Source: Vicinamibacteria bacterium
Lineage (GTDB): Bacteria; Acidobacteriota; Vicinamibacteria; Vicinamibacterales; UBA8438
Reading direction: 5' to 3'
Length of the DNA stretch: 64,000 nt
NCBI GenBank assembly: GCA_963578725.1
Contig: CAUZDS010000010.1
Coordinates: forward strand, 15,686-79,685
Made by a program: the position numbers and the translations under genes. Positions 9,543 through 64,000 of the stretch are shown here, piece by piece. Each line of letters begins with the position of its first letter. Within the stretch, counting starts at the first letter, position 1. The notes beneath the pieces are model-generated. The model was not told where the DNA came from. It worked only from the letters and a program-made list of their open reading frames with translations, and did no database searches.

Positions 9543-9564
9543 AGCGGCAAGAGATCTTGCGAAG

Positions 9565-9753: not shown

Positions 9754-9876
9754 ACCGGGCGTCCTGACAGCCCTCAGAGGCGCTCCCGCAGATGGTCGTT
9801 CCGGGTGTCGTCACTCCGGCCGCCGCTCCGGGATGCCGTCGGCGCGCTGTCCGAGGCGGCGTGGGGCGATGCCGGC

Positions 9877-12255: not shown

Positions 12256-12265
12256 GGGTTCGCTG

Positions 12266-12577
12266 TCACTCCTCCTCGAGCGTCGCCTGCAACGGGAAGT
12301 CCTCTTTCCTGGCCAGGTCGTGGGTCGTCGCGACCTTGGTCTCGGCCACCTCGTAACCGTAGGCCCCGCACACCCCGTGGCCCTGCGTGTGCACCTGCAT
12401 CGTGATCCGGTGGGCCTCCACCGGGGTCTTGTGGAACACTGTCTCGAGTATCTGCACGACGAACTCCATCGTCGTGTAGTCGTCGTTCAGCAGGATGACC
12501 CGGTAGCGCGGCGCCCTCCGGATCTTCTGCTGGGTCTTCTCGAGGACCCCGTCGTCGGTGTGCGGATCGTGCGGCAT
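12266..12577 (-). CDS. clpS: Clp protease adaptor protein ClpS
   Basis: 103 aa. YRVILLNDDYTTMEFVVQILETVFHK is the characteristic ClpS core. Conserved clpS-clpA gene order. Confidence 0.9.
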   Translation of the reverse strand: MPHDPHTDDGVLEKTQQKIRRAPRYRVILLNDDYTTMEFVVQILETVFHKTPVEAHRITMQVHTQGHGVCGAYGYEVAETKVATTHDLARKEDFPLQATLEEE

Positions 12578-12650
12578 GCGATCTCGATCAGACTATGGAG
12601 ATCGTCACGAGGTCAAGCCGACGGCCTGTGCATAGTAGAATTTCACCGCC

Positions 12651-29161: not shown

Positions 29162-29994
29162 GCCGATGTCAACTCTTCGAGGGCCAGCGCCAGCTCGTCG
29201 TCTTCCGGTGGCCTATAGTGCCAAGCCAACCGGTTTTCCATGAAACTCACGCCTTTACCCTTCACGGTGTGCGCGATAAGGCACGTGGGACGGTGAGCCT
29301 GGAGCGGCAACGTGTCCATTGCCGCATCGATCTTCGCGAGGTCGTGGCCGTCAATCTCGCGAACCGCCCAGCCGAAGGCGCGCCACTTGTCGGCTAGCGG
29401 ATCGAGATTCAACACGTCTTCGACCCGTCCGAGACTTTGGATCTTGTTGTAGTCGACGATCGCGACGAGGTTGTCGAGGCGATGATGGGGTGCGAACAGT
29501 ACCGCCTCCCACGTTGACCCCTCGTCGCATTCGCCGTCACTGAGCACGGTGAAGACGCGATAGTCGGCGCCCGCGCGGCGGCCGGCCAGGGCCATCCCGC
29601 AGGCGATCGACAGACCGTGGCCCAACGAACCGGTCGACACGTCAATGCCCGGGGTGCCGGCGGTCGCATGACCGGCCAGCAGGGTCCCGTTCTGATAGAA
29701 CGTGTCGAGCCACTCGACCGGAAAGTACCCGCGCTCGGCCAACGCCGCGTAGAGCGCCACGCACGCATGTCCCTTGCTGAGGACCATCCTGTCGCGACCT
29801 TCCCACGCCGGGCGGGTGGGGTCGACCCTGAGGCGGCCGCCGTAGAGCACCGCGAGCAGGTCGGCGATGGACAAGGCACTGCCGATGTGTGAGCTCCGGG
29901 CGCGGTGCACCATCTGCACCGAGCGCATCCGAATCGTCCGCGCAAGATCACGATATCGCTGGTGCTGGGAACGCTCGGCTTCCACGATGGGCAT
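29158..29994 (-). CDS. Transketolase, N-terminal (ThDP-binding) subunit
   Basis: 278 aa. SHIGSALSIADLL, STGSLGHGLS and the ThDP motif LSDGECDEGSTWEA. Confidence 0.9.
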   Translation of the reverse strand: MPIVEAERSQHQRYRDLARTIRMRSVQMVHRARSSHIGSALSIADLLAVLYGGRLRVDPTRPAWEGRDRMVLSKGHACVALYAALAERGYFPVEWLDTFYQNGTLLAGHATAGTPGIDVSTGSLGHGLSIACGMALAGRRAGADYRVFTVLSDGECDEGSTWEAVLFAPHHRLDNLVAIVDYNKIQSLGRVEDVLNLDPLADKWRAFGWAVREIDGHDLAKIDAAMDTLPLQAHRPTCLIAHTVKGKGVSFMENRLAWHYRPPEDDELALALEELTSA

Positions 29995-30729
29995 CTACTC
30001 GATGCGCGCGAACCCGACGTACGGATCCCACGGGAAGCGCTTGATCTCCAACCGATTCAGCCCTATCGCCTCCACCGTCGCCAGCGTCTCCCCCGGCCAG
30101 ATCGGATTGTCGAGCTCGTCGAACGCGATCACCGCGCCCTTCGGCATCCGCGGCACCAAGTGCTCGAGCGCCGTCCGCGTGGGCTCGTACAGATCCAAGT
30201 CGAGGAAGAGCAGGCTCACAACGAGGTGACCATGTTCAGCCAGGAACGCCGGGATGGTCTTGGTTACGTCGCCCTTGACGAGGTGCACCTTATCGATGTG
30301 CCCCAGAAACCGGTCCGAATCGTAGACTCGGATGAGCTCCTGCAGCTCGTCGTATGCGTCGGCCCGAAGCCCTCCCTCGTGGGGTGACTGCCGCGGGTTA
30401 CGGTCCTTGTCCGCCACGCCGGGAAAGCCCTCGAAGCTGTCGAAGCCGTAGATCCGGCGCGTCAGGTTCGCGGGCTCCAGCACGGCGCTCAAGTGTGCCC
30501 AGGTCATCAGGCTGAAGCCACGGAATACCCCGCACTCGACGATCGACCCCTTGACGTCCAGGACGCTCTTGAACAGCTCGTAGAGGGTGATGAAACGTGT
30601 GATCGTCTTGCGCCGCGCGTAGCGCGGAAAAGTCTCGAGCCGCGTGTCGACGCTGTCACGGCTCGTCTCGAAGATACGCTCGAGCTCGGCCCCGACGCCC
30701 TCCTCGGCTGCGGTGCGCAGAGCCTTCAT
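29995..30729 (-). CDS. TylF/MycF-family (macrocin-type) O-methyltransferase
   Basis: 244 aa. IVECGVFRGFSLM and YGFDSFEGFP motifs characteristic of TylF-like sugar O-methyltransferases. Confidence 0.85.
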   Translation of the reverse strand: MKALRTAAEEGVGAELERIFETSRDSVDTRLETFPRYARRKTITRFITLYELFKSVLDVKGSIVECGVFRGFSLMTWAHLSAVLEPANLTRRIYGFDSFEGFPGVADKDRNPRQSPHEGGLRADAYDELQELIRVYDSDRFLGHIDKVHLVKGDVTKTIPAFLAEHGHLVVSLLFLDLDLYEPTRTALEHLVPRMPKGAVIAFDELDNPIWPGETLATVEAIGLNRLEIKRFPWDPYVGFARIE

Positions 30730-45189: not shown

Positions 45190-46116
45190 CTACATCTTCC
45201 CCACATACGGATGATTAGTGGCCTTACGCCGCACAAGATAGTGCCCCCAGAGGTAGACCCGCACTACCAGTTTCCATAGCCATGGGCTTCGCCTGAGACC
45301 CGGCTCGAGTCGCCGACGAAGGGTGCGCAGCCGCGGGTCTGACACACCGGCGGTCTCGTGCCGCCATGGCGGCGAGACGTTGCCTTGCAGTGGTATCACT
45401 TCGGCCGTGGAGTCGGGACCCTTCTTCGCCACGACAATCGTGGCCCAAGCCTTGCGAGACCACAGCCAGGCGAACGGGGCGATCGGCGTACCGTACTCGT
45501 GCCGATACAGATGCCACTTGTCCATCGTTGCAAACGGCCGGATATGCTCAATGAGCCAGACGTCGCATCGCTCGAACCTGTTGACGGCGTAGTAGTCGAT
45601 GAAAAAGATCGGACTGAGCTGATGGTAGCCGTGATCGATGTAATTCGATGTGGGCGCGAAATGCATCACGGTTCCGCTCGAGTTGGCCAGGAGATTGATG
45701 TTTCGCAGTGCGGCGTGGACGTCATGAACGTGCTCGATGGTGCCGCTATCGATCACCGTATCGAAGCAGCCCAGTAGGTCGGAGGGCAGCGGTTTGTTCA
45801 AGTCACAGATCACGTCGGCACCCTCGTAGTCGGATACGTCAAGCGAAACCAACGTCTCGACGCCGAGCAGCTTGAAAAAGACCACGTCGCTCGTGTTGCT
45901 CGAATTCGGCGTGTCCTTCCAGGAGGGGATGTTCGTGCGAAGGTCCTGTTCCTCAGGAAGCGGATGCGGGTCCCATCCCTCTTCGCGCATCATCGTGATC
46001 ACCCGATCGTAGGTGGCGACCACGCGATTGCGTCCGAGCGTGCAGACGGCGGCCCCCAGCGGCCGGTGCCGGTGTTGACGAACGATGAACCGAAGCGCCG
46101 AGAGAGAGAGACCCAT
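45190..46116 (-). CDS. Putative SAM-dependent methyltransferase-like protein
   Basis: 308 aa. TLGRN..., DLNKPLP...FDTVIDSGTIEHVHD resembles divergent class I methyltransferases seen in O-antigen loci. No canonical GxGxG motif. Confidence 0.55.
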   Translation of the reverse strand: MGLSLSALRFIVRQHRHRPLGAAVCTLGRNRVVATYDRVITMMREEGWDPHPLPEEQDLRTNIPSWKDTPNSSNTSDVVFFKLLGVETLVSLDVSDYEGADVICDLNKPLPSDLLGCFDTVIDSGTIEHVHDVHAALRNINLLANSSGTVMHFAPTSNYIDHGYHQLSPIFFIDYYAVNRFERCDVWLIEHIRPFATMDKWHLYRHEYGTPIAPFAWLWSRKAWATIVVAKKGPDSTAEVIPLQGNVSPPWRHETAGVSDPRLRTLRRRLEPGLRRSPWLWKLVVRVYLWGHYLVRRKATNHPYVGKM

Positions 46117-51403: not shown

Positions 51404-52270
51404 CTAAGAGGATGCGCCGTTCGGCTCGAGAGTTGGATCGTGGCCGGACAGCGCTTGGGCTCGCTGCGAGACGCCAAAAACTTCTCCGAGGCCCAGTCCT
51501 CCGTCGATGACGAGGACCTGACCGGTGATGTACGCCGATTCCTCGGAACTGAGAAAGATCGCCGCGCGAGCGACGTCGGCGGCCCGGCCGGCGCGACCCA
51601 GCGGCACGACCGACTCGACCACCGCACGCGTGGCTGAATCGTCAGTCAGACGATGCCCGGCATCGCGGTCGATCAATCCGGGAGCGAGCGCGTTCACGCG
51701 GACGCCGTGCGGACCCAGCCGTACCGCCAGCCAGCGGGTCAGGTGATTCAGGCCCGCCTTAGAAACATGGTACGGCCACGAGCACTGATCCAGGGCCACC
51801 GCGGAGCCCACGACGGATGAGATGTTAACGACCGCGCCCCGCTTGTGCGCCGCCAGATGGGGCAGCGCGGCGTCGGTCAGATTGACCACCGCTTGCAGCA
51901 CGACCTGTTCGTGCACCGCCCAATCTGCCCCACCGACCTTGCCGATCATCGAGCGATCACGGTGTGGCGCCGCGTTATTGATCAGGATATCGAGGCGCTC
52001 GAAGGTGCTAACCGTCCGAGCGACGGCCGATTGACAGCCATCGACTGTCGCGATATCGGCGCGGATGAAGGCGGCGCGGAACCCGCTCGATGTCAGGTGC
52101 TGGGCCAGCTGGCGGCCTTTCTCGACCTGGACGTCGACGATCGCCACCGCTGCGCCGGCATCAGCAAGTCCTTCGCAGATGCCGGCTCCGATCCCCTGGG
52201 CGCCGCCCGTGACGAGCGCGACCCGAGCGTCCAACGGGGCGCGAGAGTCCGCAGAGCGCGCTGGCGTCAT
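51404..52270 (-). CDS. SDR-family oxidoreductase
   Basis: VALVTGGAQGIG cofactor motif and catalytic YHVSK. Confidence 0.9.
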   Translation of the reverse strand: MTPARSADSRAPLDARVALVTGGAQGIGAGICEGLADAGAAVAIVDVQVEKGRQLAQHLTSSGFRAAFIRADIATVDGCQSAVARTVSTFERLDILINNAAPHRDRSMIGKVGGADWAVHEQVVLQAVVNLTDAALPHLAAHKRGAVVNISSVVGSAVALDQCSWPYHVSKAGLNHLTRWLAVRLGPHGVRVNALAPGLIDRDAGHRLTDDSATRAVVESVVPLGRAGRAADVARAAIFLSSEESAYITGQVLVIDGGLGLGEVFGVSQRAQALSGHDPTLEPNGASS

Positions 52271-52271: not shown

Positions 52272-53006
52272 TCACGTCACCGGTGGACGAGCCGGTCGAA
52301 TCTCAACCCAGTTGATCGCCGCCCGGAAGTCAGCATCGAGCACATGCAGGACGGCCTTGGCGACATCGTCGGCATCGAGGTGCCAGTCCTGTGGCGCAAC
52401 TCCGGCAAGGCCGGTCGCAACCGTCCCTGGAGCCACGAGGCTGACCCGGATGCCGCGGGGATGGAGGTCCAGGAACAGGGCCTCCGTGAATCCTTGCAGT
52501 CCGAACTTCGTCGTGTTGTATCCGACGCCTCCCCGAAAGGCGTACCGGCCGGCACGGCTCCCGAGGTTGACGATGTCCGCCTGTCCGGCGGCGGTGAGCA
52601 GCGGCAGCGTGGCACGGCAGCAGTTGAAGACGCCAGTCAAATTCGTGTCGATCATGTTCTGCCAGGCTTCCGGTGTGAGCCCGTCGATTGGCGCAATCGT
52701 GCCGACACCCGCGGCATTGATCAGCGCGTCGACACGTTCGAACCGGTCACCGGCGGCGTCGACCATTGCTTCGACACTCGAGGCATCGCGCACGTCGCAC
52801 ACCATGCCAGCGAGGCGGTCGCGCCCATGCGATGCGAGGCTGCTTAGGGCGTCAGCAAGGCGCCGGCTGTCGCGTGCACAGACAAATGCGGCATCGCCGC
52901 GCTGCAGCAGGGCCCTCGCAACGGCCAGGCCAATGCCGGCGGTACCACCCGTCACAATTGCGGTGCGCACTTGTCGACGATCCAGAGCGCTTCGATCACT
53001 GAACAA
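52272..53006 (-). CDS. SDR-family oxidoreductase
   Basis: AIVTGGTAGIG cofactor motif and catalytic YNTTK. Confidence 0.9.
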   Translation of the reverse strand: MFSDRSALDRRQVRTAIVTGGTAGIGLAVARALLQRGDAAFVCARDSRRLADALSSLASHGRDRLAGMVCDVRDASSVEAMVDAAGDRFERVDALINAAGVGTIAPIDGLTPEAWQNMIDTNLTGVFNCCRATLPLLTAAGQADIVNLGSRAGRYAFRGGVGYNTTKFGLQGFTEALFLDLHPRGIRVSLVAPGTVATGLAGVAPQDWHLDADDVAKAVLHVLDADFRAAINWVEIRPARPPVT

Positions 53007-55017
53007 GCTGTGCCCGACGGAAGACTCTGTGCAAGTGGGGATATCGCATCAGCATCTTGCCCAGCCCATCGTGGGAGCTGCCGAATTCCTGCACGTACCC
53101 GGCAAGTTGCTCCCGTTGCGCTGGCAGGTGCGTCACGACATACGCCCTGGACTCTGGCGTCCGCACATCGTCGGGGAGCATCTCGAACCGCTCCGCCTCT
53201 AGCTTCTGTAGATCGAATTCAAAGTCGTCGACAAATTCCGCCTCGTATTGAGTCAGGTTCGTTTTCCGCATTTCGCTGAAGCGGCGACAGTCATCCAGAT
53301 ACAGCATGGTGAGGTCGTCGAGTCGGCTCTGCTCATCGAGCCACCTGGCCAGCTCGTCGAAGAGCGCCCGGTTGATCTTTTCAAAGAGCTGGAAGAACGC
53401 GGTGGCTTTAGCCATGGACATTTCGTTGGTGCCACGGTCGTCGTGCAGCAGACCGTCGATGTCCCGTGCCACGTTCTCCTCAAGTTCCCGCCGTGTGTCC
53501 CACAGCCGCACCGAATGACTTGCCTTGAAGTCGTCGTAGAGCTGTCGAACCTCGTCGCCACATGTTCGGCGCTTCTGAAAGAACCGCATGATGAAGTCGA
53601 ACCATGACAGGTCGTAGGCATGGCACAAACCTTGAAGCTCGGCGTAGACCTTGCCGTTGTGGACGATCTCGACGGTGAGGTCCATCTCTCGGCAGGTCAC
53701 GTAATCGTCGAAGGGCATCGTCGAACTCTCGACCAGGATCTCTTCAGATTCCACCGCGACAAACTCGCGCCCTGCGACTTTATACCGGCCAAAAGACCGT
53801 GGCATGATCCGGTGCATCGACCGCATCTTGAATTGTCGCCGCTGGTCCGGCGTGTTCAGCGCAGTCTGCGGCAGCATGATCAACTGGTACATGCGGATGT
53901 TGTCGAAGTTGGCGTCCACCGTGTCACGCAACGATTGCGTGTGGGTGTCGAGGGAATCACCGGGCAGGCCGAGGATGAGCTCGCTGTACGTCCCGGTGTC
54001 CACCTTGTTCGCAAGCAGCCCAACGTCCGCCAGTTTATCGAGAGAAATGTTCGAACGGGAGATGTTCTTGAGCACCTGCGGGTCCGTAGATTGAAGCGAC
54101 GCGGCCATGTTGAGCGCGCCGTCCAGCATCTTCGCGATGTCGACTACGCGTTCTTTCTGGTTCTTGCCTGTCGAGACGTGGATGTATCGTGGGAAGTCGA
54201 ATTTCTGCTGGCACTCCGCGATCAGCCTCGCCTTCTCATAATCCTGTTTGAACATCCCGAAGTTCGCGTCAGTGATGAACAGATCGCGCGGGCCGCGTAC
54301 GCGGCGTGAGATGTAGTCGAGCTCTTCTTCCAGGCCGTCGCGACGCTGCCCGACGATGTTGTAGTACGAGGCCCCTTCGGTGCAGAAAGCGCATCGGAAG
54401 GGGCACCCACGCGTGGTGTGGATCATGGGACACAGATGCCGGTCGAAGAACTTGTCCATCAGGCCCATGAGGTACGGAGATGGAAGTGCCGCCAGCTCGA
54501 GCCTCGGTAGTGTCGGGCCGGTCACGATACGGTCGCCACTGGCGTAGTGGCAATTCGGCAGCGCCTCACCGACGCTCTTCAGCGCCCGCGGCTCCATCCG
54601 GTGTCTTTTCAGTGCGTCGAAGAGATGGACGAACGCCTGCTCGCCTTCTTGTACGACATGGAAATCGAGGAGCGGATAGTCACGCCAGAACTGCCCAACT
54701 TCCTCTTCGGTTAGCCCGTAATTCGGGCCACCGAACACGACGGCCGTGTCCGGCCAGATGGACTTGATGACTTTGGCATAGTTATAGCTGATGTTCACGT
54801 TCCACGAGTAGTTTGCAAACCCGACGATGTCGGGACGCCGGGCATCGAGAGCGGCGCTGAGATCCTCGGGGTACTTGAACAACTCGATCTCCGTCTCGTC
54901 GGGTCGACTCTGGAGCAGATAGCCGGCAACCAGCCCGATCGACAAGGGAAAGACGTTTGAGGACAGGATGAGCCCCCGATGCGTGAGATCGGCCAGGTAT
55001 ATCAGGGTCTTGCGCAT
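52996..55017 (-). CDS. B12-binding-domain radical SAM enzyme (class B, methylase-like)
   Basis: 673 aa. N-terminal Rossmann-like B12-binding region (IVGFANYSWN...VVFGGPN), a CxxxCxxC cluster in TTRGCPFRCAFCTEG, and a long C-terminal extension. Confidence 0.85.
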   Translation of the reverse strand: MRKTLIYLADLTHRGLILSSNVFPLSIGLVAGYLLQSRPDETEIELFKYPEDLSAALDARRPDIVGFANYSWNVNISYNYAKVIKSIWPDTAVVFGGPNYGLTEEEVGQFWRDYPLLDFHVVQEGEQAFVHLFDALKRHRMEPRALKSVGEALPNCHYASGDRIVTGPTLPRLELAALPSPYLMGLMDKFFDRHLCPMIHTTRGCPFRCAFCTEGASYYNIVGQRRDGLEEELDYISRRVRGPRDLFITDANFGMFKQDYEKARLIAECQQKFDFPRYIHVSTGKNQKERVVDIAKMLDGALNMAASLQSTDPQVLKNISRSNISLDKLADVGLLANKVDTGTYSELILGLPGDSLDTHTQSLRDTVDANFDNIRMYQLIMLPQTALNTPDQRRQFKMRSMHRIMPRSFGRYKVAGREFVAVESEEILVESSTMPFDDYVTCREMDLTVEIVHNGKVYAELQGLCHAYDLSWFDFIMRFFQKRRTCGDEVRQLYDDFKASHSVRLWDTRRELEENVARDIDGLLHDDRGTNEMSMAKATAFFQLFEKINRALFDELARWLDEQSRLDDLTMLYLDDCRRFSEMRKTNLTQYEAEFVDDFEFDLQKLEAERFEMLPDDVRTPESRAYVVTHLPAQREQLAGYVQEFGSSHDGLGKMLMRYPHLHRVFRRAQLVQ

Positions 55018-55772
55018 GGTTCTTTTGAGTGTGCGGCGGACTGCGGATTAGAAGGGTCGCTCGAGCGACGCTGCGAGAAGGAGACCTCCGATCGGGCCGC
55101 ATGCAGGCTGGCTGGCGTCCCAATGTCGATGTGGGTGCCGTGATTGCGCCAGGCGAAGACCCGGCCCAGGAAGCGCGGTACCACCTCCGTGATGAAGTCG
55201 ATACGGTGGGTCCCCAAGGTCGCCATGAAGTCTACAACCTCGGGCTCCACGATATACACCGCTCCGTTGGCCAGGTTCCCCGGCGGGTCGGCAACCTTTT
55301 CGTGCAGTTCGACCACGACCCCGCGCTCGTCGAGCCGCACGATGCCACAGGAGCCGGGCGTGTTGGTCACAAACGTCATCACCGTCATCACGGTGCCGGC
55401 GGGCCGGGCCTTGTGTGCACGCACGAACGATCGAATATCGCAGACGCACAGATTGTCCGCGTGCACAAGTAGCACCGGCTCTCTCCCGATGAACTCACGG
55501 TTCACGAGCAGCGTGCCGCCGGTTCCAAGCAACTCAGGTTCATGGATGAGCGTCACCTCGGATCCATGAGGGCTTCGGCAGACGTGCCGCCTCACCTCGT
55601 CTGCCAGGTGATGGGTGTTCACCAGGAACGGTCCTAGCCCGGCTGACGACAACTGTTCCAGCCAGATGTCGAGCAATGGGCGACCCTTGATCGGCACGAG
55701 ACACTTTGGCACGGTGTCGGTCAGTGGGCGAAGCCGCGTGCCCAGTCCAGCCGCGAGGATGATCGCCTTCAT
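55002..55772 (-). CDS. Sugar-1-phosphate nucleotidyltransferase (HddC/ManC-N-like; candidate heptose-1-P guanylyltransferase)
   Basis: MKAIILAAGLGTRLRPLTDTVPKCLVPI from ATG 55772, which abuts the upstream stop at 55769-55771. About 256 aa. Confidence 0.85.
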   Translation of the reverse strand: MKAIILAAGLGTRLRPLTDTVPKCLVPIKGRPLLDIWLEQLSSAGLGPFLVNTHHLADEVRRHVCRSPHGSEVTLIHEPELLGTGGTLLVNREFIGREPVLLVHADNLCVCDIRSFVRAHKARPAGTVMTVMTFVTNTPGSCGIVRLDERGVVVELHEKVADPPGNLANGAVYIVEPEVVDFMATLGTHRIDFITEVVPRFLGRVFAWRNHGTHIDIGTPASLHAARSEVSFSQRRSSDPSNPQSAAHSKEPCARP

Positions 55773-57256
55773 GCCGTCCCGGCGAATGCGGACAGCAACT
55801 CTTCCGTCCGGATAGGCACGTTGCCGAGGCGACTGACCTGACACGCGGCCGCCGTCGATCCGACGTATGCTGCTTGCCATACCGTCGCGCCGCGCGCCAT
55901 CGCGAGTGAGCTAGCCGCCAACATCGAGTCGCCGGCACCCGCCGAGTCTCGGCTGCCGGTTGCGAAGGCTGGCAGTCGATCGGTCAGCCACCTGTCGTCA
56001 CGCATCACGGCCGCGTGAACAAGGACGCCTTCAGCGCCGAGCTTCAGCATCAGATTCTGTGCCTTGGCCTGCCGGCGTAGCGCCTCGGCGAGCACGACCA
56101 GCCCATCTTCGTGATTATGCGTGCTGATTCGAGCTTCACGCTCGGTGGGTGTCAGAAGCGCCATGCCCTGGAATCTCGCCACATCACCGATCTGCGATGA
56201 ACATTGGCTGTCGGCAATCATCAGGAGACCGCGCTCGCTACCTAGCTTCGTCACAAGGTCTACGAGCGGTTGTGGCAAGCATCCGTAGTTGTAGTCGGAG
56301 AACACCAGCAGGTCCGCCTGCTCGAGCAGCGGTCGGAGTATGCTGACGAGCGCCGCCTGCAGGTCGGCGCTGAGTCCGTGTTGCCGCAGGTAGCTGACGC
56401 GCAGCAGCGTCTTGCCCTGCGCGCGATACCGCCGCTTGATCGTGGTGGGCCGACTGTCGTCTTCCACTAGGTGAGCACGGACATGGTATTCCCGCAGACG
56501 CTCCTCGGCGATTCTCCCGGCGTCATCGCGGCCGGCCACCGCGAGATAGTCGACTTCGGCTCCCAGGCTGGCGGCGTGAGCGGCCACGATCCCGGCTCCG
56601 CCGATGAAAGACTGCTGAAGAACAGGTGTAACCACGATCGAAGGATCTTCTTGCGACATGCCGACGGGATCGCAATCGACGTATTCGTCGATGATGAGAT
56701 CGCCAATCACGACCATTCGCACACCCTGGAACCGATGGACGAGGTCGCGGAGCTCACCTACCGAGAAGCCGTGCCGCGCCGCGAAATCGGGTGGCAGGAC
56801 GACTGACGCGGAGCTCGCGGTCTGCATCTCGTGGCGGAGCAAGTCGACGGAGGAGAACACGGTCTCTCCCGATCCGAACAAGAGGTGTCCGCCATGGGCA
56901 CTGACCGACTCCTGCTCGGGGTTGTATTTGGTTTCGTGCTCCTTGCCCTTCACCACGAAGTGTGGCTTCAGGACGCGGATGAATTCTCCGACCGGCCGAC
57001 ATAGGATGAAAGCGTAGTCGACCCAACTGTTCGCCTGGGCGCCCTCGAGACGCAGCGTCTCGCTGAGTAGCGCGGCGCTGCCAGCCGTCGCGTCATCCAG
57101 CACGCCGACGACGAGAAAGTTACCGCACTCCTTGGCGAAACGCAGGAGACGCAAGTGCCCAGGATGGAGAATATTGAAATTCCCAGACACGAAGACGACG
57201 TGCGCATCGTCCGGGGCGACCTCGCGAATGTCAGCCAGTATCCGTTCAAATGGCAC
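55769..57256 (-). CDS. Bifunctional heptose-7-P kinase / heptose-1-P adenylyltransferase with reversed domain order (cytidylyltransferase-like domain N-terminal, PfkB kinase C-terminal)
   Basis: N-terminus VVFVSGNFNILHPGHLRLLRFAKECG...VVKGKE (HxGH nucleotidyltransferase, RfaE domain II type). C-terminal ~330 aa MVVIGDLIIDEYV...GGAGIVAAHAASLGA...DSAGAGDS (RfaE domain I / PfkB). Confidence 0.8.
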   Translation of the reverse strand: MPFERILADIREVAPDDAHVVFVSGNFNILHPGHLRLLRFAKECGNFLVVGVLDDATAGSAALLSETLRLEGAQANSWVDYAFILCRPVGEFIRVLKPHFVVKGKEHETKYNPEQESVSAHGGHLLFGSGETVFSSVDLLRHEMQTASSASVVLPPDFAARHGFSVGELRDLVHRFQGVRMVVIGDLIIDEYVDCDPVGMSQEDPSIVVTPVLQQSFIGGAGIVAAHAASLGAEVDYLAVAGRDDAGRIAEERLREYHVRAHLVEDDSRPTTIKRRYRAQGKTLLRVSYLRQHGLSADLQAALVSILRPLLEQADLLVFSDYNYGCLPQPLVDLVTKLGSERGLLMIADSQCSSQIGDVARFQGMALLTPTEREARISTHNHEDGLVVLAEALRRQAKAQNLMLKLGAEGVLVHAAVMRDDRWLTDRLPAFATGSRDSAGAGDSMLAASSLAMARGATVWQAAYVGSTAAACQVSRLGNVPIRTEELLSAFAGTA

Positions 57257-57280: not shown

Positions 57281-58312
57281 TCACTCCATGACCAGCAAGG
57301 GTCGAAACACACGGCGAGCCTCGAGATCTTCGAGGGCCTCGTTTACGTGAGCGAGGTCGTACCGATCCGTCAGCAATCGTTCGAGCGGCAGCTGGCCCCT
57401 GCGGTATAGCTCGGCCAGTCTCGGAATGTCCCGATCCGGTTTGCTGTCACCGCCCCAGGTGCCGGCGATGCGCTTGCCTGAAATGAGGTCGTGGGGATCT
57501 AGACAGACCTTCCGGCCAGCTTCCGGGTGGGATGCGAAGAGACACCGGCCGCCGTGCTGACGGACAGCGGCAAAGGCCTGCTCGATGGTGTCCGTCGATC
57601 CGCCCGCCTCTACGCTGTAATCGACACCACGGTCTGCGGTGAGGTCACGCACCGCCTGGAGGGGATCGCAGCTCATCGCGTTGATGGTGTGCGTGGCCCC
57701 GAACGCCCGTGCAGTCTCCAGCTTGTCTTCCGCCACGTCGACGGCGATGATTTGGCGGCAGTCGAACAGCCGGCACGCCATGAGCGCGCTTAGCCCGATC
57801 GCTCCCAAGCCGAAGACCGCTACGCTGCTCCCAGGGTCAGGACTGAGTTCATTTAACACCATCCCCGCGCCGGTTGGAAGAGCGCATCCGAAAAGCACGG
57901 CTACGTCCAGCGGCAGACCCTCGGGCACCCGAACGACCCGGTTTTCCGCCACGATCGCATGTGTGCTGAACGTGTTCACTGGACCCGCATTGATCGTGCG
58001 GTTTCCCTTGAGAAAACGTGAACCGCCAGCGTCGAGCCCTGTGCTGTGAATCCACGTGAGAATGACGGAATCGCCTGGAGCCACCTTTGTGACGCTCTCG
58101 CCCACCTCGAGCACTCTCCCGGAACCTTCGTGGCCGAGCAGATGTGGTAGCCAGCGATCAACCCCGCGTGCGCCGCGAACCTCCATCAACTGGCTGCGGC
58201 ACACGCCACTGAAGGCGATCTCGACGAGGACCTGTGCGGGTACGAGGTCCGGAATGTCGAGGTCCTCTATGCGCAGCGGGCTCCCCGCTTCGTAGAGGAC
58301 TGCGGCCCGCAT
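57281..58312 (-). CDS. Zinc-dependent medium-chain alcohol dehydrogenase
   Basis: From ATG 58312 (MRAAVLYEAGSPLRIEDL). GHEGSGRVLEVG zinc-ligand motif and GLGAIGLS Rossmann motif. Confidence 0.9.
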   Translation of the reverse strand: MRAAVLYEAGSPLRIEDLDIPDLVPAQVLVEIAFSGVCRSQLMEVRGARGVDRWLPHLLGHEGSGRVLEVGESVTKVAPGDSVILTWIHSTGLDAGGSRFLKGNRTINAGPVNTFSTHAIVAENRVVRVPEGLPLDVAVLFGCALPTGAGMVLNELSPDPGSSVAVFGLGAIGLSALMACRLFDCRQIIAVDVAEDKLETARAFGATHTINAMSCDPLQAVRDLTADRGVDYSVEAGGSTDTIEQAFAAVRQHGGRCLFASHPEAGRKVCLDPHDLISGKRIAGTWGGDSKPDRDIPRLAELYRRGQLPLERLLTDRYDLAHVNEALEDLEARRVFRPLLVME

Positions 58313-58427
58313 CCGACTGGGCCGTCGCGGGCTCGATGTGGGTTGCGTCACAGCGGTGACCGTGGCTGCGAGTGACGGACGCTGTGGCAGATCTGGCACG
58401 ATCGTTCGACGCCGACGGTGAAGCCCC

Positions 58428-58922
58428 TCACACAGGCTCGATAAGGACTGTTACTGAAGACGTCGGCCCTTTGCTAAGAGCGCACCATAGGTGAAGGGCG
58501 TGGAGGGTGATCTCCGTCAGGGCGAATCTCCGGCCCAACTGCTGCGAAAAGGCGGTGCCGGCCGACAGTTCGTCGAGGGCAAAGGCACCCAGATCCTGAC
58601 CTTCACGAAGCACCAAACCGTCGATCGAAGCCTCTCTTCGTCCGCTGTAACCGATGATCGTGGATCGTCCACCGCGGGCCCTGAACGAGCCGAGGCGGTG
58701 CAGCACCGCCGGCGCCCACTCCAGTTCCTCCAGCAGCTCTCGCCGCAGCCCCTCGTCCGGAGCTTCTTCGTCCTTGAGGTGTCCGCCGAAGAACCCCCAC
58801 TCACCAGGCTCTGAGATTCCGGCTCGGAAGTCACGAAGCTGCAGGAGGAGGCGGTTCCCGCACCACAGCACGGCCACGGCGATTCGCTCGTCCGCGGTCA
58901 CCGCGCTTCGGCGTCGACCCAT
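58428..58922 (-). CDS. NUDIX hydrolase
   Basis: From ATG 58922. Nudix box GGHLKDEEAPDEGLRRELLEELEW. Confidence 0.8.
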   Translation of the reverse strand: MGRRRSAVTADERIAVAVLWCGNRLLLQLRDFRAGISEPGEWGFFGGHLKDEEAPDEGLRRELLEELEWAPAVLHRLGSFRARGGRSTIIGYSGRREASIDGLVLREGQDLGAFALDELSAGTAFSQQLGRRFALTEITLHALHLWCALSKGPTSSVTVLIEPV

Positions 58923-59102
58923 GGGGGCCGAGCAGCCCGTGTTGAAACCCTGGGTCGCACCTAGACGCCTGGTGCGCAGTGCAGCGCATGGCCAGTACAG
59001 GGCGCGACGAAGGAGCACACCAGTCGGTATTCGACTGAGAAACAACCTAGACGGACGGGATGCGGCGGCCGTCGAACGCAGCGGGGCCTTCGCCACGGGC
59101 TG

Positions 59103-60914
59103 CTAGACACCGGCTCCTCCCCTGCCCTTGTTCTCTTTGGCGTTGGGTCGAAAGCCGCCAACCAGCATCTCAGCATCCAGGAGATCTGGGTCCAGAGAGG
59201 GCAACTGGTCCTCGAGTGGTGAGCCGTACTTGACCACAGGATAGAGCTTCTGGTCCGGATGGATTTCCACATTACACAATATCGGTCCGGGCCGTCCGTA
59301 CACGTCTTTCAACTGGGCCGCCATCGACGCCGGATCGTCGATCGTCACAACATCGAAGCCCATGGCCGTTCCCACTTTCACGAAATCCGAGAAGGCCAAA
59401 CCCGACTCTGGATGGACCCCCGCGTAGCGTCCGCCCAGCCAGGTCTGGAGGGTCTGCTTCTGAATTCCGTGGCCGTGGTTGTTGAACAGCATGACGCGAA
59501 TCGGCAAGCGATGGTGCTGGACCGTCGCGAGCTCACCCAAGCACAGCATCAGTCCTCCGTCGCCGATGATACAGGTCACGCCGCCTGGGGCCGCGAACGC
59601 GGCACCGATCGCGGCTGGCAGCGCGTATCCCATCGGGGTGTTATTCCATGCGGAGAACACCGTCTGGTTGCACTTAGGCCGAAGCCCGTTACACGTCCAG
59701 GTCAGATTGCCGCCGGTGTCCACCACGATCGTCTCGTCGTCTGGCAACTGGCACGACAGCGCCTCCACGAAGCTGTACGCCTCCACGCAGCGCCGGTCAG
59801 GAGCGCACCCGACCGTTCCCTCGAGCGGGAACCGCTTCCGCCAGTGCGACGTCTTTGCCAGCCATGGCGACAGGTCCCCCAGTTTGCGGTCATAGAGCCG
59901 CGAGCGTAGCAGTGTCAGAAATTCCGCCGCTCGGCTTTCGATCCGCAGCGCCACGGTGATGCCGCGGCCGTCGAACTTGTCCAGTTCCGCCCGATCGACG
60001 TCCACCATCGCGATGGTCGCTTCCCGCGCGAAAGCGTTCAGGAGGCCACCGGTCACGTTCTGAGAGAGCCTGGTCCCGATCGCCAGGACTAGATCCGCAT
60101 TCTGAACCGTCAAGTTGCCGAATCGCGGACCGTACACCCCCAACGTGCCGACGCGAAGCGGATGATCGACTGGAAGCAAGTCGATGGCAGCCCACGTCAG
60201 CAGGACCGGCACACCGACGTGCTCCACGAAGTCCAGAAGAGCGGTGTGGGACACGGGCGGTGTCTTGAGCCCGCCACCCAGGATTAGCACCGGCCGGCGA
60301 GCTTGGTGCAGAAGCTCCACTAGACGGTCGATGTCCCCGGTCTGGTCGTCGTGGGACGTCTGCGTTGGCCGGAACCCCTCCATCGTTTCCGGGTTCACCT
60401 CTGCTCGCTGGAGGTCATCCGGTAGGTCCACGAGCACGGGGCCGGGCCGGCCATTGAACGCAAGATGGTAGGCCTTTTCCATGTGGTACCGGATCCGAGC
60501 GGGTTCCCGTACCGACGCCACATATTTGGTCACGGACTGGAAGATCGATCGGACATCCGTCTCCTGGAAGCCGACTTGTCGCACCTGTCGGTCTCCCTTT
60601 AGACGGAAGGTGGCGACCTGACCCGTCAGCATAAAGGTCGGTATCGAATCGTAGTACGAGCAACAGACACCCGTGAGGAGATTGGTCGCGCCCGGGCCAC
60701 TGGTTGTGATGGCGGCGCCGATCCGCCCGGTGACGCGGGCGTAGCCGTCGGCGGCCACCGCGGCGGACTGTTCGTGCTGCGGGCAGACATAGGCTGTTCG
60801 TGGATGCCGGGCGACGGCATCGAACAGATGCACCGCGGCGCCGCCGGAGATACCGAAAAAGTGCGTCACCTCTCGTTGGGCCAGGAAGTCGATGACGTAC
60901 TCACTCAGTTTCAT
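59103..60914 (-). CDS. Thiamine-diphosphate enzyme of the acetolactate-synthase/YerE type
   Basis: 603 aa, three-domain ALS-like layout. N-terminal FFGISGGA...TSGPGATNL and C-terminal ThDP motif IIGDGGLMLCLGELATV...NN. Confidence 0.9.
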   Translation of the reverse strand: MKLSEYVIDFLAQREVTHFFGISGGAAVHLFDAVARHPRTAYVCPQHEQSAAVAADGYARVTGRIGAAITTSGPGATNLLTGVCCSYYDSIPTFMLTGQVATFRLKGDRQVRQVGFQETDVRSIFQSVTKYVASVREPARIRYHMEKAYHLAFNGRPGPVLVDLPDDLQRAEVNPETMEGFRPTQTSHDDQTGDIDRLVELLHQARRPVLILGGGLKTPPVSHTALLDFVEHVGVPVLLTWAAIDLLPVDHPLRVGTLGVYGPRFGNLTVQNADLVLAIGTRLSQNVTGGLLNAFAREATIAMVDVDRAELDKFDGRGITVALRIESRAAEFLTLLRSRLYDRKLGDLSPWLAKTSHWRKRFPLEGTVGCAPDRRCVEAYSFVEALSCQLPDDETIVVDTGGNLTWTCNGLRPKCNQTVFSAWNNTPMGYALPAAIGAAFAAPGGVTCIIGDGGLMLCLGELATVQHHRLPIRVMLFNNHGHGIQKQTLQTWLGGRYAGVHPESGLAFSDFVKVGTAMGFDVVTIDDPASMAAQLKDVYGRPGPILCNVEIHPDQKLYPVVKYGSPLEDQLPSLDPDLLDAEMLVGGFRPNAKENKGRGGAGV

Positions 60915-60945
60915 TGGTAGTCACGAGCCTCTGGAGCGGATGGTC

Positions 60946-61824
60946 TCAGGACCAGGGCCCCGCGTCCCGCCGGGTGATGAACAAGCTTCCATCACGATAG
61001 CTTGTGGGCATATCCGAGGATCGCCGCACAGCGGTCCATCCGTTACGCTGTGCATGCAGGTTCAGCTTCAGTTCGGTACAGTGTTGGAAGATCTGCTCGG
61101 CATTTTCACGCGTGCCCACTTCCAAGACCATGTCGGTCAGCTCCCAATCCTCTGCAGCCGTCGCGCACACGATCTGGCTTTCATGACCCTCGACGTCCAG
61201 CTTGACGAGATCCGCCCACGTCATGAGCGGTCGAATAGACGCGACCTTCACGAGAAAACGCTCCAGCTTGCCGTATGGCCGACCCTTCGAACCGGCAAGA
61301 TGGCTGCTGGTCGTATTACCTATGACACGGATGAACTCCTCCTCGCCGTCTCGGTCTGACACGGCAGCGCTGATTGCCCTGGTGCGAGAGCATGCATTTG
61401 CAGCCAGGTTTTCGCCAAGTAGCCGAAAGTGTTCGGGATCCGGCTCATAGGACTGCACCTCGTAGCCGCAACGATTCAACACGATCGAGTGGAGGCCCAG
61501 ATTCGCTCCGGCGTCGAGCACGCGGCGATACCGATCGCGGTTCGACCAGTAGAAGGCGAACAGGATCAGTTCGTCCAGGCCGAATAGATCAACCGAGTCG
61601 ATCGCTCCCATTCGGTGGTACGGGAACGCCAATCCGCCGAATGGCTCGAGCCGCTGCGGACGGTCGGCATCAGGGCCGAACCTGGCGAGCACCTGCTCCC
61701 CTGCGACCAGAGCGAGGAACTCGTATATCGGAGACATGGGAGCGTGAAACGGCGTCAGCGCCGGGAGCGCCTCGATGAGTCGATCGAGCGACGACGACAC
61801 CGATGTCACACTTCCGGTCGCCAT
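60946..61824 (-). CDS. FkbM-family methyltransferase
   Basis: From ATG 61824. VLDAGANLGLHSIVL and ADLVKLDVEGHE motifs. Confidence 0.85.
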   Translation of the reverse strand: MATGSVTSVSSSLDRLIEALPALTPFHAPMSPIYEFLALVAGEQVLARFGPDADRPQRLEPFGGLAFPYHRMGAIDSVDLFGLDELILFAFYWSNRDRYRRVLDAGANLGLHSIVLNRCGYEVQSYEPDPEHFRLLGENLAANACSRTRAISAAVSDRDGEEEFIRVIGNTTSSHLAGSKGRPYGKLERFLVKVASIRPLMTWADLVKLDVEGHESQIVCATAAEDWELTDMVLEVGTRENAEQIFQHCTELKLNLHAQRNGWTAVRRSSDMPTSYRDGSLFITRRDAGPWS

Positions 61825-62630
61825 GCGTTGCCACACCTCCTGAGCTTGTACAAATCTCGGTCGGCCAGAAGCGCCGCCGTCAGCGACGGGGTGCCCCACG
61901 CATCGTGGGCCACGCTGAAGTTCCGGCCGCCGACCACGTTTCGATCGGCCGAGAGGACCCAGTCGCAACAAGCGATCACACGTGTTAGTTGCGTCCAACT
62001 GGACGCGTCCTTCCCTTTGAGCTTGCTGATCGTCACGTCATAGGCGGCACCAGCCCGCTGGCCAGCTCTTATGGTTTCATCATGGATCTTGGTCCTCACC
62101 CAGCCTGGGCCGACGGTGACGAAACGCACATCGGGCACCTCGGCATCGAGAAGCTCCATCATCTTGGTCTGGGCGATTTTCGAGATGGTATACGCCGACA
62201 GCGCCGTTGGAGCGCTGTTCGTGCCGCTTCCCGCCCAAGCGATCACGCACGGGCCCTTCACCGCCTCACGATTTCTCGAGGGCAGCAGCGCGTGAATACA
62301 TCGCATCTGCGCGACGAAGTTCCGGTTCAGTGATTCCGCCCACGCGTCGAAGTCGACGTCGGTAAACTCACCGATCGGCTCGAGTGTGGCAGGGCATACA
62401 ACGAGCGCATCCCACGGCCCTGCGAGCTCTGCCAGCCGTGCGCACGCCGCCTTCACGGACGCCTGGACATCGAGGTCGCAATGGATCAACGAGACCCCGC
62501 GGTCCTGCAGCGCGACCGTCTTCGGTGACGACGTGCGATAGGTGCCCACGACGGCGTCACCTCGTCCGGCCCAGTGTGCCGCCAGGGCGTGACCGATGTC
62601 GCTCGACGCCGATATGACGGCAATCTTCAC
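61806..62630 (-). CDS. SDR-like NAD(P)-dependent oxidoreductase
   Basis: 274 aa. Atypical cofactor motif ISASSDIG and catalytic YTISK. Confidence 0.75.
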   Translation of the reverse strand: MKIAVISASSDIGHALAAHWAGRGDAVVGTYRTSSPKTVALQDRGVSLIHCDLDVQASVKAACARLAELAGPWDALVVCPATLEPIGEFTDVDFDAWAESLNRNFVAQMRCIHALLPSRNREAVKGPCVIAWAGSGTNSAPTALSAYTISKIAQTKMMELLDAEVPDVRFVTVGPGWVRTKIHDETIRAGQRAGAAYDVTISKLKGKDASSWTQLTRVIACCDWVLSADRNVVGGRNFSVAHDAWGTPSLTAALLADRDLYKLRRCGNAWRPEV

Positions 62631-62633
62631 AGG

Positions 62634-63728
62634 TTAGAAGGGGCCGGTAAACCAGTCGCCCGGAACGTCCGGTTGGTGGGTACGCAGCGCGGTGGTGTCC
62701 GCCACCAGCTCCCGCCCGAGGAGCCGGCCGACTTCCAGGATGATGTCGTCCGAGGTCGGATAGTACACCTGCGCCAGCGCGGGGCTGGTCGGCGACGGCG
62801 TGTCGGGAGGCGCCAACTGGCGCGGGGCACACCGTAGCGCGCTAAAGCGATTCCTGGCCACGCTGGCCACGATCTCGCTGGCGACCGAACATGTCGGATT
62901 CGCGGTGTCGACGACGAGCAGCCGGCCCGTCTTCGTCACTGACGCGTAGACGGCGTCCCAGTCTAGCGGGCGCACACTGCGCAGATCCAGAACGTCGCAG
63001 CTGACGTGCTGTTTCTCGAGAGACTCGATCGCGTGGAGCACCTCGACCGTCATATACGACAACGACACGATCGTCGCGTCACACCCCTCCCGAACGCGCC
63101 GCGCCACGCCGAGCGGGACCCGTTCGTCTCCCGGCGGTACCTCGCCTCGCAGACTGTGCAGCCACCGGTGCTCGAGGAACACCACCGGATCGGGATCGAA
63201 GATCGCCGATAGCAGCAACCCCTTGGCGTCGGCCGGCGTCGTGGGCATGACGACCTTCAAGCCGGGAATGTGCGCCAACCACGCCTGCAGATTCTGGGCG
63301 TGCGTCGGGCCCTGTCCCCACCCGCGGCCGAGAATCAGGCGGATGGTGATCGGAACGGACGCCTGTCCCCCGAACATATAGCGCCATTTGGCGGCATTGT
63401 TGACGAGCTGATCCATCGCCAAGAGAAAGAAGTCGAGGCGCTGATGCGTCATGACCGGGCGGATGCCGTTCAAGGACGCGCCGATGGCGACGCCCGTCAT
63501 CGCGTTCTCTGACGTCGGCATGTCGAACACTCGCGCCGGGCCAAACCGTTCCCGCAGACCGACCGTGGTGCCAAATATACCCTTGGGATCATCAGTGCCG
63601 AGGCCGTAGCAGATGACGTTGGAATCCAGCTCCATGGCGATGTCCAGCGCGTCCCTGACGGCATCTACGAACGTTACCTCCCGAGTTGCCGCGGGCGACG
63701 CCGTCGGCATCGAACTTTCACTGGCCAT
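62634..63728 (-). CDS. 2-oxoacid dehydrogenase E1 component, beta subunit-like (transketolase-like pyrimidine-binding)
   Basis: 364 aa. VFDMPTSENAMTGVAIGASLNGIRPV and a C-terminal transketolase-C fold. No E2/E3 genes nearby in the window. Confidence 0.9.
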   Translation of the reverse strand: MASESSMPTASPAATREVTFVDAVRDALDIAMELDSNVICYGLGTDDPKGIFGTTVGLRERFGPARVFDMPTSENAMTGVAIGASLNGIRPVMTHQRLDFFLLAMDQLVNNAAKWRYMFGGQASVPITIRLILGRGWGQGPTHAQNLQAWLAHIPGLKVVMPTTPADAKGLLLSAIFDPDPVVFLEHRWLHSLRGEVPPGDERVPLGVARRVREGCDATIVSLSYMTVEVLHAIESLEKQHVSCDVLDLRSVRPLDWDAVYASVTKTGRLLVVDTANPTCSVASEIVASVARNRFSALRCAPRQLAPPDTPSPTSPALAQVYYPTSDDIILEVGRLLGRELVADTTALRTHQPDVPGDWFTGPF

Positions 63729-63731
63729 CGC

Positions 63732-64000
63732 TCAATTCTTCGCGGACATACTTTCGGACGAACTGATGTGTTCAAACAGTTCCTCGGGTGACGGGAACAT
63801 CGAGTTCTCGGCGAACGCAAAGGCATCGTCGATTTCCGCGCGGATGTTCGCGTCCATATCCTCGAGTAGATTGCTGGGGGCGGCGCGCCCGTCGAAAAGC
63901 GCCGTCGTCAGACGGGGAATCGGATCGCGCCCTTTCCACTCCAGATACTCCGCGTCCGTCCGATAGCCGAGGTCGTTATCGAAGTTGGGCCCGCAGTGCT
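63732..64000 (-). CDS. 2-oxoacid dehydrogenase E1 component, alpha subunit-like (3' end only; gene continues beyond window)
   Basis: My reverse translation reads ...HCGPNFDNDLGYRTDAEYLEWKGRDPIPRLTTALFDGRAAPSNLLEDMDANIRAEIDDAFAFAENSMFPSPEELFEHI...* with TGA at 63734-63732. The pattern YR...E...W...DPI..L matches E1-alpha C-termini. Not in the ORF track (open at the window edge). Confidence 0.75.
   Translation of the reverse strand, partial: HCGPNFDNDLGYRTDAEYLEWKGRDPIPRLTTALFDGRAAPSNLLEDMDANIRAEIDDAFAFAENSMFPSPEELFEHISSSESMSAKN

Follow-up and report, generated by a model that had tools for sequence, protein, structure and literature searches.

A conserved heptose-linked gene cassette with two types of thiamine diphosphate enzyme in a glycan locus of a Vicinamibacteria bacterium

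Enzymes that depend on thiamine diphosphate (ThDP) are known to branch keto-sugars in two forms (PMC9306805; PMC12247030): as three-domain carboligases of the YerE type in a few O-antigens and as E1 alpha/beta pairs in actinomycete antibiotics, with one enzyme per pathway. JanthE, a characterised YerE-like enzyme, accepts ketones (PMC12188165), and all 13 known candidates for sugar transketolases are from Streptomyces, in an account that treats the two ThDP classes separately (PMC12247030). A further system with an unusual bicyclic sugar is found in the photosynthetic Bradyrhizobium ORS285, where disruption of gdh led to loss of the bradyrhizose O-antigen; gdh is part of an operon of 11 genes whose contents were not described, and the genes for bradyrhizose synthesis were stated to be unknown (Busset et al., 2016; PMC4743980). 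Here we analyse a stretch of 64,000 nt from a Vicinamibacteria bacterium (GenBank assembly GCA_963578725.1, contig CAUZDS010000010.1, positions 15,686–79,685; the window) and above all its genes at 59,103–64,000, which encode a YerE/JanthE-like enzyme and an E1 alpha/beta pair. What appears to be new is that both ThDP types are locked together with heptose supply in one cassette, which occurs in at least eight phyla. We think it fairly probable that this cassette makes a doubly C-extended sugar, of 11 or more carbons, from an activated heptose by means of the two ThDP enzymes.

The two ThDP enzymes of the window

A preliminary description of this DNA had called the three-domain ThDP enzyme (59,103–60,914, minus strand; 603 aa; TPP_enzyme_N 1e-33, M 5e-29 and C 2e-29) ALS/YerE-like; it does not group with the anabolic acetohydroxyacid synthases (AHAS). 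On the evidence of its sequence the protein is not an acetolactate synthase, because it scores below the cut-off of TIGR00118 (381 against 538 bits), the true ilvB and ilvN lie elsewhere, it differs from AHAS in a motif and in a loop insertion, JanthE is its best solved match, and it belongs to a separate clade whose union with AHAS is rejected. The genuine ilvD-ilvB-ilvN-ilvC cluster of the genome is located on another contig (C36), with an IlvB of 739 bits, and the direct neighbours of the ThDP gene code for an FkbM methyltransferase and a NUDIX hydrolase, with no ilvN nearby. Among solved relatives JanthE (8rph) reached 345 bits, PpYerE (5ahk) 275 and E. coli AHAS I 274. In the alignment the catalytic Glu (HEQ) and the ThDP-binding motif GDGGL are kept. 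The RFDDR motif, present in three AHAS (the plant enzyme, that of E. coli and the genome's own IlvB), reads RLSQN in the window protein, as it does in 30 of 43 members of its clade. A six-residue insertion in a loop of the N domain, LKGDRQVRQVGFQE, matches LKGKRDIRQQGFQE of PpYerE and has the same length in JanthE, and it is missing from all three AHAS. In a maximum likelihood tree the ThDP enzymes of the cassette form one clade (support 100/99) and the AHAS another (100/99), the former being sister to the JanthE group (99/97); a forced grouping of the cassette enzymes with AHAS was rejected by the approximately unbiased (AU) test (p-AU 0.027). By signature and context, the enzyme thus appears to be of the YerE/JanthE kind.

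The second ThDP enzyme is encoded by adjoining genes for E1-beta (62,634–63,728, minus strand; 364 aa; Transket_pyr 6e-31, Transketolase_C 9e-30) and for the ThDP-binding subunit E1-alpha, of which the window holds the 3' end (63,732–64,000, minus strand; the last 88 codons, E1_dh 4e-06 on the fragment). The full E1-alpha gene (63,732–64,724 in window numbering; 732–1724 of locus L001) codes for 330 aa and matches E1_dh at 3.1e-55. E1-alpha scores 281 bits on TIGR03182 (cut-off 394), with human pyruvate dehydrogenase (PDH) E1-alpha as the best match in the PDB (1.7e-45), and E1-beta 275 bits on NF006667 (cut-off 321), with Geobacillus PDH E1-beta as best match (8e-70). The alignment to the latter reaches residue 331 only. 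Outside it lies a C-terminal tail of about 30 residues (62,634–62,730) with the near-invariant end ...(H)DVPGDWFxGPF, which reads ...DVPGDWFTGPF in the window and is kept in about 30 cassette homologues. In PDH the C-terminus of E1-beta is part of the E2-binding site; the tail may therefore be relevant to E2 binding and may mark E1 pairs that are independent of E2. In the catalytic loop of E1-alpha the His of the YR..GH motif is seemingly kept (TYRWREHCGP), which has no bearing on lipoyl dependence.

The pair had been taken for an orphan, without E2 and E3 partners, and the sequence past position 64,000 confirms this: the contig continues for 23 kb past the window, and the next 20 kb contain sugar genes and neither E2 nor E3. 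Upstream of E1-alpha follow genes for a class I methyltransferase, an epimerase-fold oxidoreductase resembling Cj1427, an RmlB-like 4,6-dehydratase, GmhA and a PglF/CapD-like dehydratase, and farther out a priming transferase and a family 2 glycosyltransferase (GT2). The sole E2 of the genome is encoded on contig C1 and a fused E1 alpha-beta on C6. The pair thus departs from the E1 of pyruvate and acetoin dehydrogenases in its scores below the cut-offs, in the lack of E2 and E3 within 20 kb and in its extra tail, and adjoining E1-alpha and E1-beta genes without E2 or E3 are found inside a nucleotide-sugar cluster in 28 other loci as well.

Conservation of the cassette and its sister operon

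The co-occurrence of a YerE-like enzyme and an E1 pair had been regarded as an unusual feature of this locus, a view that did not survive comparison with other genomes, since the two belong to a conserved cassette that has apparently spread laterally. Relatives of the ThDP protein at about 60% identity number in the thousands; they come from metagenomes and also from the named taxa Rhodopseudomonas, Sneathiella, Verrucomicrobium and Opitutaceae. From species genomes 48 loci were taken, 43 of which contain a member of the ThDP clade. E1-alpha and E1-beta are also present in 28 of these 43, and the pair stands beside the ThDP gene in 20 of the 22 loci with 8 kb or more of flanking sequence on either side. 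A homologue of the short-chain dehydrogenase/reductase (SDR) at 61,806–62,630 lies in the locus in 41 of the 43, directly adjoining the ThDP gene wherever the gene order was read. The remaining companions are GmhA, dehydratase and Cj1427-like oxidase homologues, as well as counterparts of the class I methyltransferase, the zinc-dependent alcohol dehydrogenase (Zn-ADH) and a permuted HldE, usually with FkbM; identities are 35–72%. Gene order varies by lineage and the set is constant, with recurring blocks of GmhA, dehydratase and oxidase; of methyltransferase, E1-alpha and E1-beta; of SDR, ThDP enzyme and FkbM; and of ADH, HldE and nucleotidyltransferase. The literature searched gave no account of such a ThDP combination fixed with a heptose pathway, nor of its range over phyla, an earlier mention in the survey of such clusters by Krug et al. 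(2024; Angew. Chem. e202403535) being possible.

Carriers belong to the Pseudomonadota, Verrucomicrobiota, Bacteroidota, Chloroflexota, Planctomycetota, Spirochaetota, Binatota and Omnitrophota. Of 40 genomes that share genus, family or order with the window, none has an ortholog of the ThDP enzyme; the matches there are IlvB proteins at 30–35% identity and one paralogue at 36%, and most of these genomes possess ilvB. The spread over phyla, the absence from these relatives and the slightly lower G+C content together indicate lateral spread of the cassette. The G+C content is 0.61–0.64 across 38,000–64,000 and 0.64–0.67 in most of the first 38 kb. It is hardly credible that a pyruvate or acetoin dehydrogenase E1 and an acetolactate synthase of central metabolism lie inside the glycan locus by chance. 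The top NCBIfam descriptions do read PDH E1 alpha/beta and acetolactate synthase large subunit, but these are family-level names only: every score stays under the equivalog cut-off, neither E2/E3 nor ilvN is nearby, with real ilvBN and another E1 elsewhere in the genome, the association with sugar genes recurs from phylum to phylum, and the relatives that mostly have ilvB do not have the ThDP ortholog.

The two closest homologues of the ThDP enzyme (66% and 65% identity; L004 and L005) are on contigs of metagenome-assembled genomes labelled Bifidobacteriaceae and Akkermansia muciniphila, labels that look like binning or naming errors. In two further loci, a distant three-domain ThDP enzyme (29–31% identical) directly adjoins a split transketolase that is 43% and 35% identical to the one encoded in the window (L047: ThDP gene 10,001–11,638, transketolase halves 11,728–13,430; L048: 5332–6969 and 7000–8750).

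The cassette appears to serve different glycoconjugates, in a manner that resembles the nonulosonic-acid cassettes. In Rhodopseudomonas palustris HaA2 (L002, positions 1–11,803) and a second strain (L058), a cassette of 11 genes abuts genes for a glycosyltransferase with tetratricopeptide repeats (GT41-type in HaA2), an 886-aa flagellin, flbT and flaF (L002 12,045–17,373; L058 11,816–17,143), and gene content suggests that this region is probably a flagellin glycosylation island. Elsewhere the cassette is part of polysaccharide loci of the Wzx/Wzy or the ABC-transporter kind. A GT2 and an ABC-2 transporter accompany it in Verrucomicrobium sp. GAS474, and in the window it lies inside a glycan locus that spans about 53 kb and includes Wzx, a Wzy_C protein and priming transferases. 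The 'ropiose' O-antigen cluster of R. palustris CGA009, which combines an aldolase with a ThDP enzyme (PMC9306805), was considered as a related case and set aside as a different system, with no E1 and no heptose genes, whereas the HaA2 cassette lies beside flagellin.

A second variant of the cassette leads to the gdh operon. The primers used for gdh of ORS285 encode DAFLPYK(W) and DMSLRTYF (PMC4743980), and the dehydratase family of the cassette has the motifs xFLPY[KR]W and DMSLR[TS][FY]. A metagenome relative with both primer peptides carries a cassette in which a split transketolase, an APH kinase and C-methyltransferases replace the E1 pair and the YerE-like enzyme. The gdh-type dehydratase was found in 35 of 401 genomes of a large genus, probably Bradyrhizobium. 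In one of them (G806) both primers match, with one mismatch each and 381 bp apart, inside the dehydratase gene, which stands fifth in a co-directional run of 11: permuted HldE, NTP-transferase, Cj1427-like oxidase, GmhA, gdh, TK_N, TK_C, Zn-ADH, a 204-aa protein, the APH kinase and a class I methyltransferase. The forward primer had no match in the metagenome contigs, and the primer probes gave no match in 401 genomes sampled from the R. palustris family; the one metagenome match of the reverse primer (L059) proved to be a transketolase-type cassette and not ORS285.

For nine of the 11 genes, those other than the APH kinase and the 204-aa gene, which are absent from the window's genome, the best match in that genome falls in the present locus, at 39–62% identity. 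The matches include a split transketolase (TK_N 29,158–29,994, 278 aa; TK_C 28,226–29,161, 311 aa; minus strand), with hits to Transketolase_N (2e-50), Transket_pyr (2e-29) and Transketolase_C (6e-24); its halves are 51% and 45% identical to those of Bradyrhizobium, and it is flanked by genes for a TylF-like O-methyltransferase (29,995–30,729) and a class I methyltransferase (27,398–28,213). The Bradyrhizobium operon is of the transketolase type, without a YerE-like gene, and no Bradyrhizobium ortholog of the YerE-like enzyme was named among the best 120 matches of two large protein searches and of the dehydratase search. The E1 pair stands at the position that the split transketolase takes in the sister operon, in the order dehydratase, (methyltransferase), two-subunit ThDP enzyme, ADH. 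Judged by its predicted gene products, the window locus is one with three ThDP systems for carbon–carbon bond formation around one heptose core. The "11 sugar-modification genes" behind the bradyrhizose O-antigen would accordingly be a heptose pathway plus a split transketolase, of which the literature searched gave no later account.

A proposed pathway from activated heptose

That the locus makes a branched sugar had been predicted from enzyme logic. This reading is supported; the acceptor, though, is most likely an activated heptose and not a 3,6-dideoxyhexose, and two-carbon units from pyruvate remain a deduction. In the route that we envisage, GmhA, the permuted HldE-like protein, a GmhB-like phosphatase and an RmlA-like transferase would make the activated heptose, more than one nucleotide being conceivable, as there are two nucleotidyltransferases. 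The HldE-like protein (55,769–57,256, minus strand) reverses the standard kinase-then-adenylyltransferase order, with the nucleotidyltransferase domain first (CTP_transf_like, residues 23–109) and the PfkB heptose-7-phosphate kinase domain second (residues 183–478); its matches to rfaE_dom_I (3.6e-55) and rfaE_dom_II (5e-14) are both under the cut-off. The RmlA/HddC-like sugar-1-phosphate nucleotidyltransferase (55,002–55,880, probable start near 55,772, minus strand; NTP_transferase 8e-32) shares 49% identity with its positional counterpart in the Bradyrhizobium operon, and the GmhB-like heptose 1,7-bisphosphate phosphatase is encoded at 23,699–24,349 (minus strand; NF006506, 157.5 bits, cut-off 178).

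The Cj1427-like C4 oxidase and the RmlB-like 4,6-dehydratase (window-equivalent 66,372–67,415, L001 3372–4415) would then install carbonyls, at C4 and perhaps, through the Zn-ADH, at C7. For the oxidase, PDB entry 6vo6 is by far the best match (5e-40; the next best 3e-24). By its entry description line, 6vo6 is presumably Cj1427 of C. jejuni, the C4 dehydrogenase of GDP-heptose. The activity of Cj1427 itself has been described (PMC10680097). The dehydratase has the triad TPE, where RmlB-type enzymes have TDE and GMD has TSE. To these carbonyls the E1 pair would add an acyl-anion unit, probably acetyl from pyruvate, where the Bradyrhizobium operon would add hydroxyacetyl by transketolase, and the YerE/JanthE-like enzyme would add a second acyl unit to a ketone, as in yersiniose synthesis. 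The adjoining SDR is proposed to be a YerF-like reductase of the branch ketone so formed, and FkbM would methylate. Finishing steps might involve the Zn-ADH, further SDRs, the class I methyltransferase and a B12-binding radical SAM enzyme, the methyltransferases and the radical SAM enzyme adding C1 units, before the product, possibly ring-closed, is exported by the Wzx/Wzy system of the same locus. Sequence comparison gives the gene identities, the lack of E2/E3 and ilvN, the clade, the conserved set and the homology to the gdh operon; that a heptose is the substrate, which donors are used, where they attack and in what sequence the reactions follow is inferred. If the scheme is correct, it implies a widespread surface sugar of unreported structure, and the enzymes would be of interest as biocatalysts for chiral tertiary alcohols.

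Several points weigh against this scheme. PpYerE falls with AHAS on a long branch in the ThDP tree, and the AU test rejected a single clade that would join the cassette to the known YerE-like enzymes (p-AU 0.014); because of this rejection, monophyly with PpYerE is not claimed, and the label YerE/JanthE-like is not meant as proof of membership in a single monophyletic YerE family. The tree is small, with JanthE and PpYerE as its characterised YerE-like enzymes, and the E1 pair was compared with family profiles and with solved structures, of which AviB1/B2, AlmDI/DII and KbDH have none. The heptose enzymes have their best matches in the heptose families and yet score under the cut-offs (GmhA 117 of 209 bits, rfaE_dom_I 187 of 345, GmhB 157 of 178). 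They may also feed the core of the lipopolysaccharide, a role that is possible because the genome, with two heptosyltransferase-like genes of its own, has no others of their kind: tblastn of the genome found no second copy of GmhA or of the HldE-like gene, and the GmhB gene also lies in the locus. The heptosyltransferase-family genes (Glyco_transf_9) are on contig C2 (110,994–115,223). In the dehydratase the catalytic YxxxK of SDR enzymes is changed to YxxxR in most cassette members, a minority keeping K, so that its activity is putative. The SDR-ThDP-FkbM module is present without the E1 pair in four loci (L031, L032, L034 and L041), and the two ThDP steps are thus separable. Finally, all members of the cassette are known from their genes, from which the chemistry is deduced.

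The SDR-ThDP-FkbM module without E1 also speaks for the possibility that only the YerE-like enzyme branches the sugar and that the E1 pair acts off the sugar, making or trimming the donor (a longer 2-oxo acid or an acyloin) or providing a non-sugar substituent of the acetoin/butanediol type derived from pyruvate. ErwE and MMAR_2332 take longer, pre-built 2-oxo acids as donors (PMC9306805), and the locus has several spare reductases. The known donors of long branches, however, come from a pyruvate aldolase, and the Pfam scans of the cassette genes show no aldolase; neither an acetolactate decarboxylase nor a gene for CoA handling is present, and the position of the E1 pair in the slot of the split transketolase in the sister operon points to a step on the sugar. 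We therefore consider a role off the sugar unlikely. Less likely still is an early, DXS-like action of the two-subunit ThDP enzyme before activation, in which pyruvate and heptose 7-phosphate would yield a 1-deoxy-nonulose phosphate by extension at C1 and not by branching. E1-beta and TK_C have weak DXS matches, GmhA yields such an aldose phosphate, and the APH kinase and small protein of the sister operon could handle sugar phosphates; against this, a 1-deoxy-2-ulose could not be activated by a route of the HldE type, and the cassette always keeps an anomeric kinase/nucleotidyltransferase together with an SDR-fold oxidase and dehydratase, which depend on NDP-sugars in known systems. Two additions to an activated heptose remain our preferred scheme.

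A bolder extension, which we regard as doubtful, would make the whole cassette family, with an E1 plus YerE-like type, as in the window and R. palustris, and a split-transketolase type, as in photosynthetic Bradyrhizobium, the missing route to carbocyclic, heavily C-branched surface sugars, the sugar of the window organism being bicyclic. In this view a ThDP enzyme would attach a two-carbon acyl or hydroxyacyl group at C4 of a 4-keto-heptose, C7 would be oxidised by the Zn-ADH and, speculatively, an intramolecular aldol reaction would close a six-membered carbocycle, one methylation giving 10 carbons as in bradyrhizose. The hemiacetal rings of bradyrhizose can close via O4, O5 or O9 (PMC9912281), and from this we deduce that C4 carries a tertiary alcohol and a bond to C9, as would be left when a ThDP enzyme attacks a 4-ketone. 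The sum of carbons agrees as well, with seven from heptose, two from transketolase and one methyl. If this were true, the window organism with its three ThDP systems would make a more elaborate bicyclic sugar that has yet to be described.

Further genes and comparison with known systems

All genes named earlier for 59,103–64,000 were recovered as present, intact and on the minus strand, every reading frame being open, and Pfam and NCBIfam profiles, the Pfam E-values being far from what chance would give, confirmed the SDR and FkbM genes between the E1 pair and the three-domain enzyme as well as the Zn-ADH and NUDIX genes downstream. The SDR reductase (61,806–62,630, minus strand; 274 aa) matches adh_short at 5.5e-17 and has YxxxK. 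The FkbM-family methyltransferase (minus strand; TIGR01444 2.2e-19) has an open reading frame at 60,946–61,998; its start was placed at the ATG at 61,824 because homologues have 286 aa, among them the FkbM that adjoins the ThDP gene in Verrucomicrobium sp. GAS474 (45% identity). The NUDIX hydrolase gene (58,428–59,096, minus strand; NUDIX 9e-10) has no homologue in the other cassette loci compared. The Zn-ADH, a core cassette gene (57,281–58,399, minus strand; ADH_zinc_N and ADH_N), resembles class III ADH in the PDB (2e-51) and shares 46% identity with its counterpart in the Bradyrhizobium gdh operon. The gaps of 3 nt each between the genes for E1-alpha, E1-beta and the SDR fit an operon, and it seems reasonably likely that 59,103–64,000 is the centre of a nucleotide-sugar operon on the minus strand, which would run from about 51.4 kb to about 7 kb past the end of the window. 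This would take in an accessory module, consisting of the B12-binding, KedN5-like radical SAM enzyme (52,996–55,017, minus strand; Pfam and NCBIfam matches), a probable C-methyltransferase, and two SDR reductases (52,272–53,006 and 51,404–52,270, minus strand). Copies of the radical SAM gene at 62–70% identity, usually with both SDRs, occur in Sneathiella and Azospirillum cassettes, and both SDRs accompany it in five loci of the Sneathiella group. Beyond this module the operon also has a gene for a DUF218 protein. Farther along, a 308-aa protein without family match (45,190–46,116, minus strand) has homologues at 21–34% identity in at least nine other cassette loci and may be a conserved accessory gene product, possibly a transferase.

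Among described systems, YerE of the yersiniose A pathway in Y. pseudotuberculosis, JanthE, PpYerE, ErwE and MMAR_2332 resemble the three-domain enzyme of the cassette as carboligases of the same build, with the GDG motif and the catalytic Glu. The likeness extends to the lack of the AHAS motif RFDDR, to the N-domain insertion of six residues as in PpYerE and JanthE, and to the position of the gene beside those for a reductase and for enzymes that make keto nucleotide-sugars. The cassette enzymes differ in forming a clade of their own, about 60% identical across phyla and sister to JanthE instead of PpYerE, in an acceptor that is probably an activated heptose and not CDP-3,6-dideoxy-4-keto-glucose, and in being almost always accompanied by the E1 pair and an FkbM methyltransferase.

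The E1 pair has its counterpart in the alpha-KADH2 class, whose members add C2 branches to antibiotic sugars (aldgamycin, avilamycin/everninomicin, kosinostatin, paulomycin, and KbDH of kibdelomycin). These, too, are adjoining E1 genes without E2 or E3 amid nucleotide-sugar genes, with PDH-like products below the equivalog cut-offs, a likeness in genes and context. They act alone, however, in secondary-metabolite clusters of actinomycetes, whereas the pair described here belongs to loci for surface glycans or flagellin in Gram-negative and other phyla, where a second ThDP enzyme accompanies it, and its E1-beta has the DVPGDWFxGPF tail. The split transketolases of miharamycin and amipurimycin, for which a hydroxyacetyl branch has been proposed, share with that of the window the arrangement as two genes, TK_N and TK_C, inside a sugar pathway; the 13 known candidates of this kind all come from Streptomyces (PMC12247030), whereas the window's type occurs in a Gram-negative-type glycan locus and in Bradyrhizobium.

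The heptose steps recall the modification of capsular heptose in C. jejuni by Cj1427, heptose 4,6-dehydratases, epimerases and reductases, where an activated heptose likewise undergoes C4 oxidation or 4,6-dehydration before it is tailored; the cassette is likened to it through 6vo6, presumably Cj1427, as the best PDB match of its oxidase. In C. jejuni the heptose is supplied by the GDP-alpha-heptose route (HddA/HddC), and its tailoring is confined to epimerisation, reduction and methylation, with no ThDP enzymes and no carbon added. A close sister of the window locus is the gdh operon of photosynthetic Bradyrhizobium (ORS285, ORS278, BTAi1), whose link to bradyrhizose comes from one possibly polar gdh mutant (PMC4743980). 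It has the genes for HldE, NTP-transferase, oxidase, GmhA, dehydratase, Zn-ADH, class I methyltransferase and split transketolase in common with the window, and the same dehydratase motifs, FLPY[KR]W and DMSLR. It differs in having the APH kinase and the 204-aa protein and in lacking the E1 pair, the YerE-like enzyme, FkbM and the SDR module. By gene content, then, the window locus is a sister variant of the gdh-type transketolase cassette and not a member of it.

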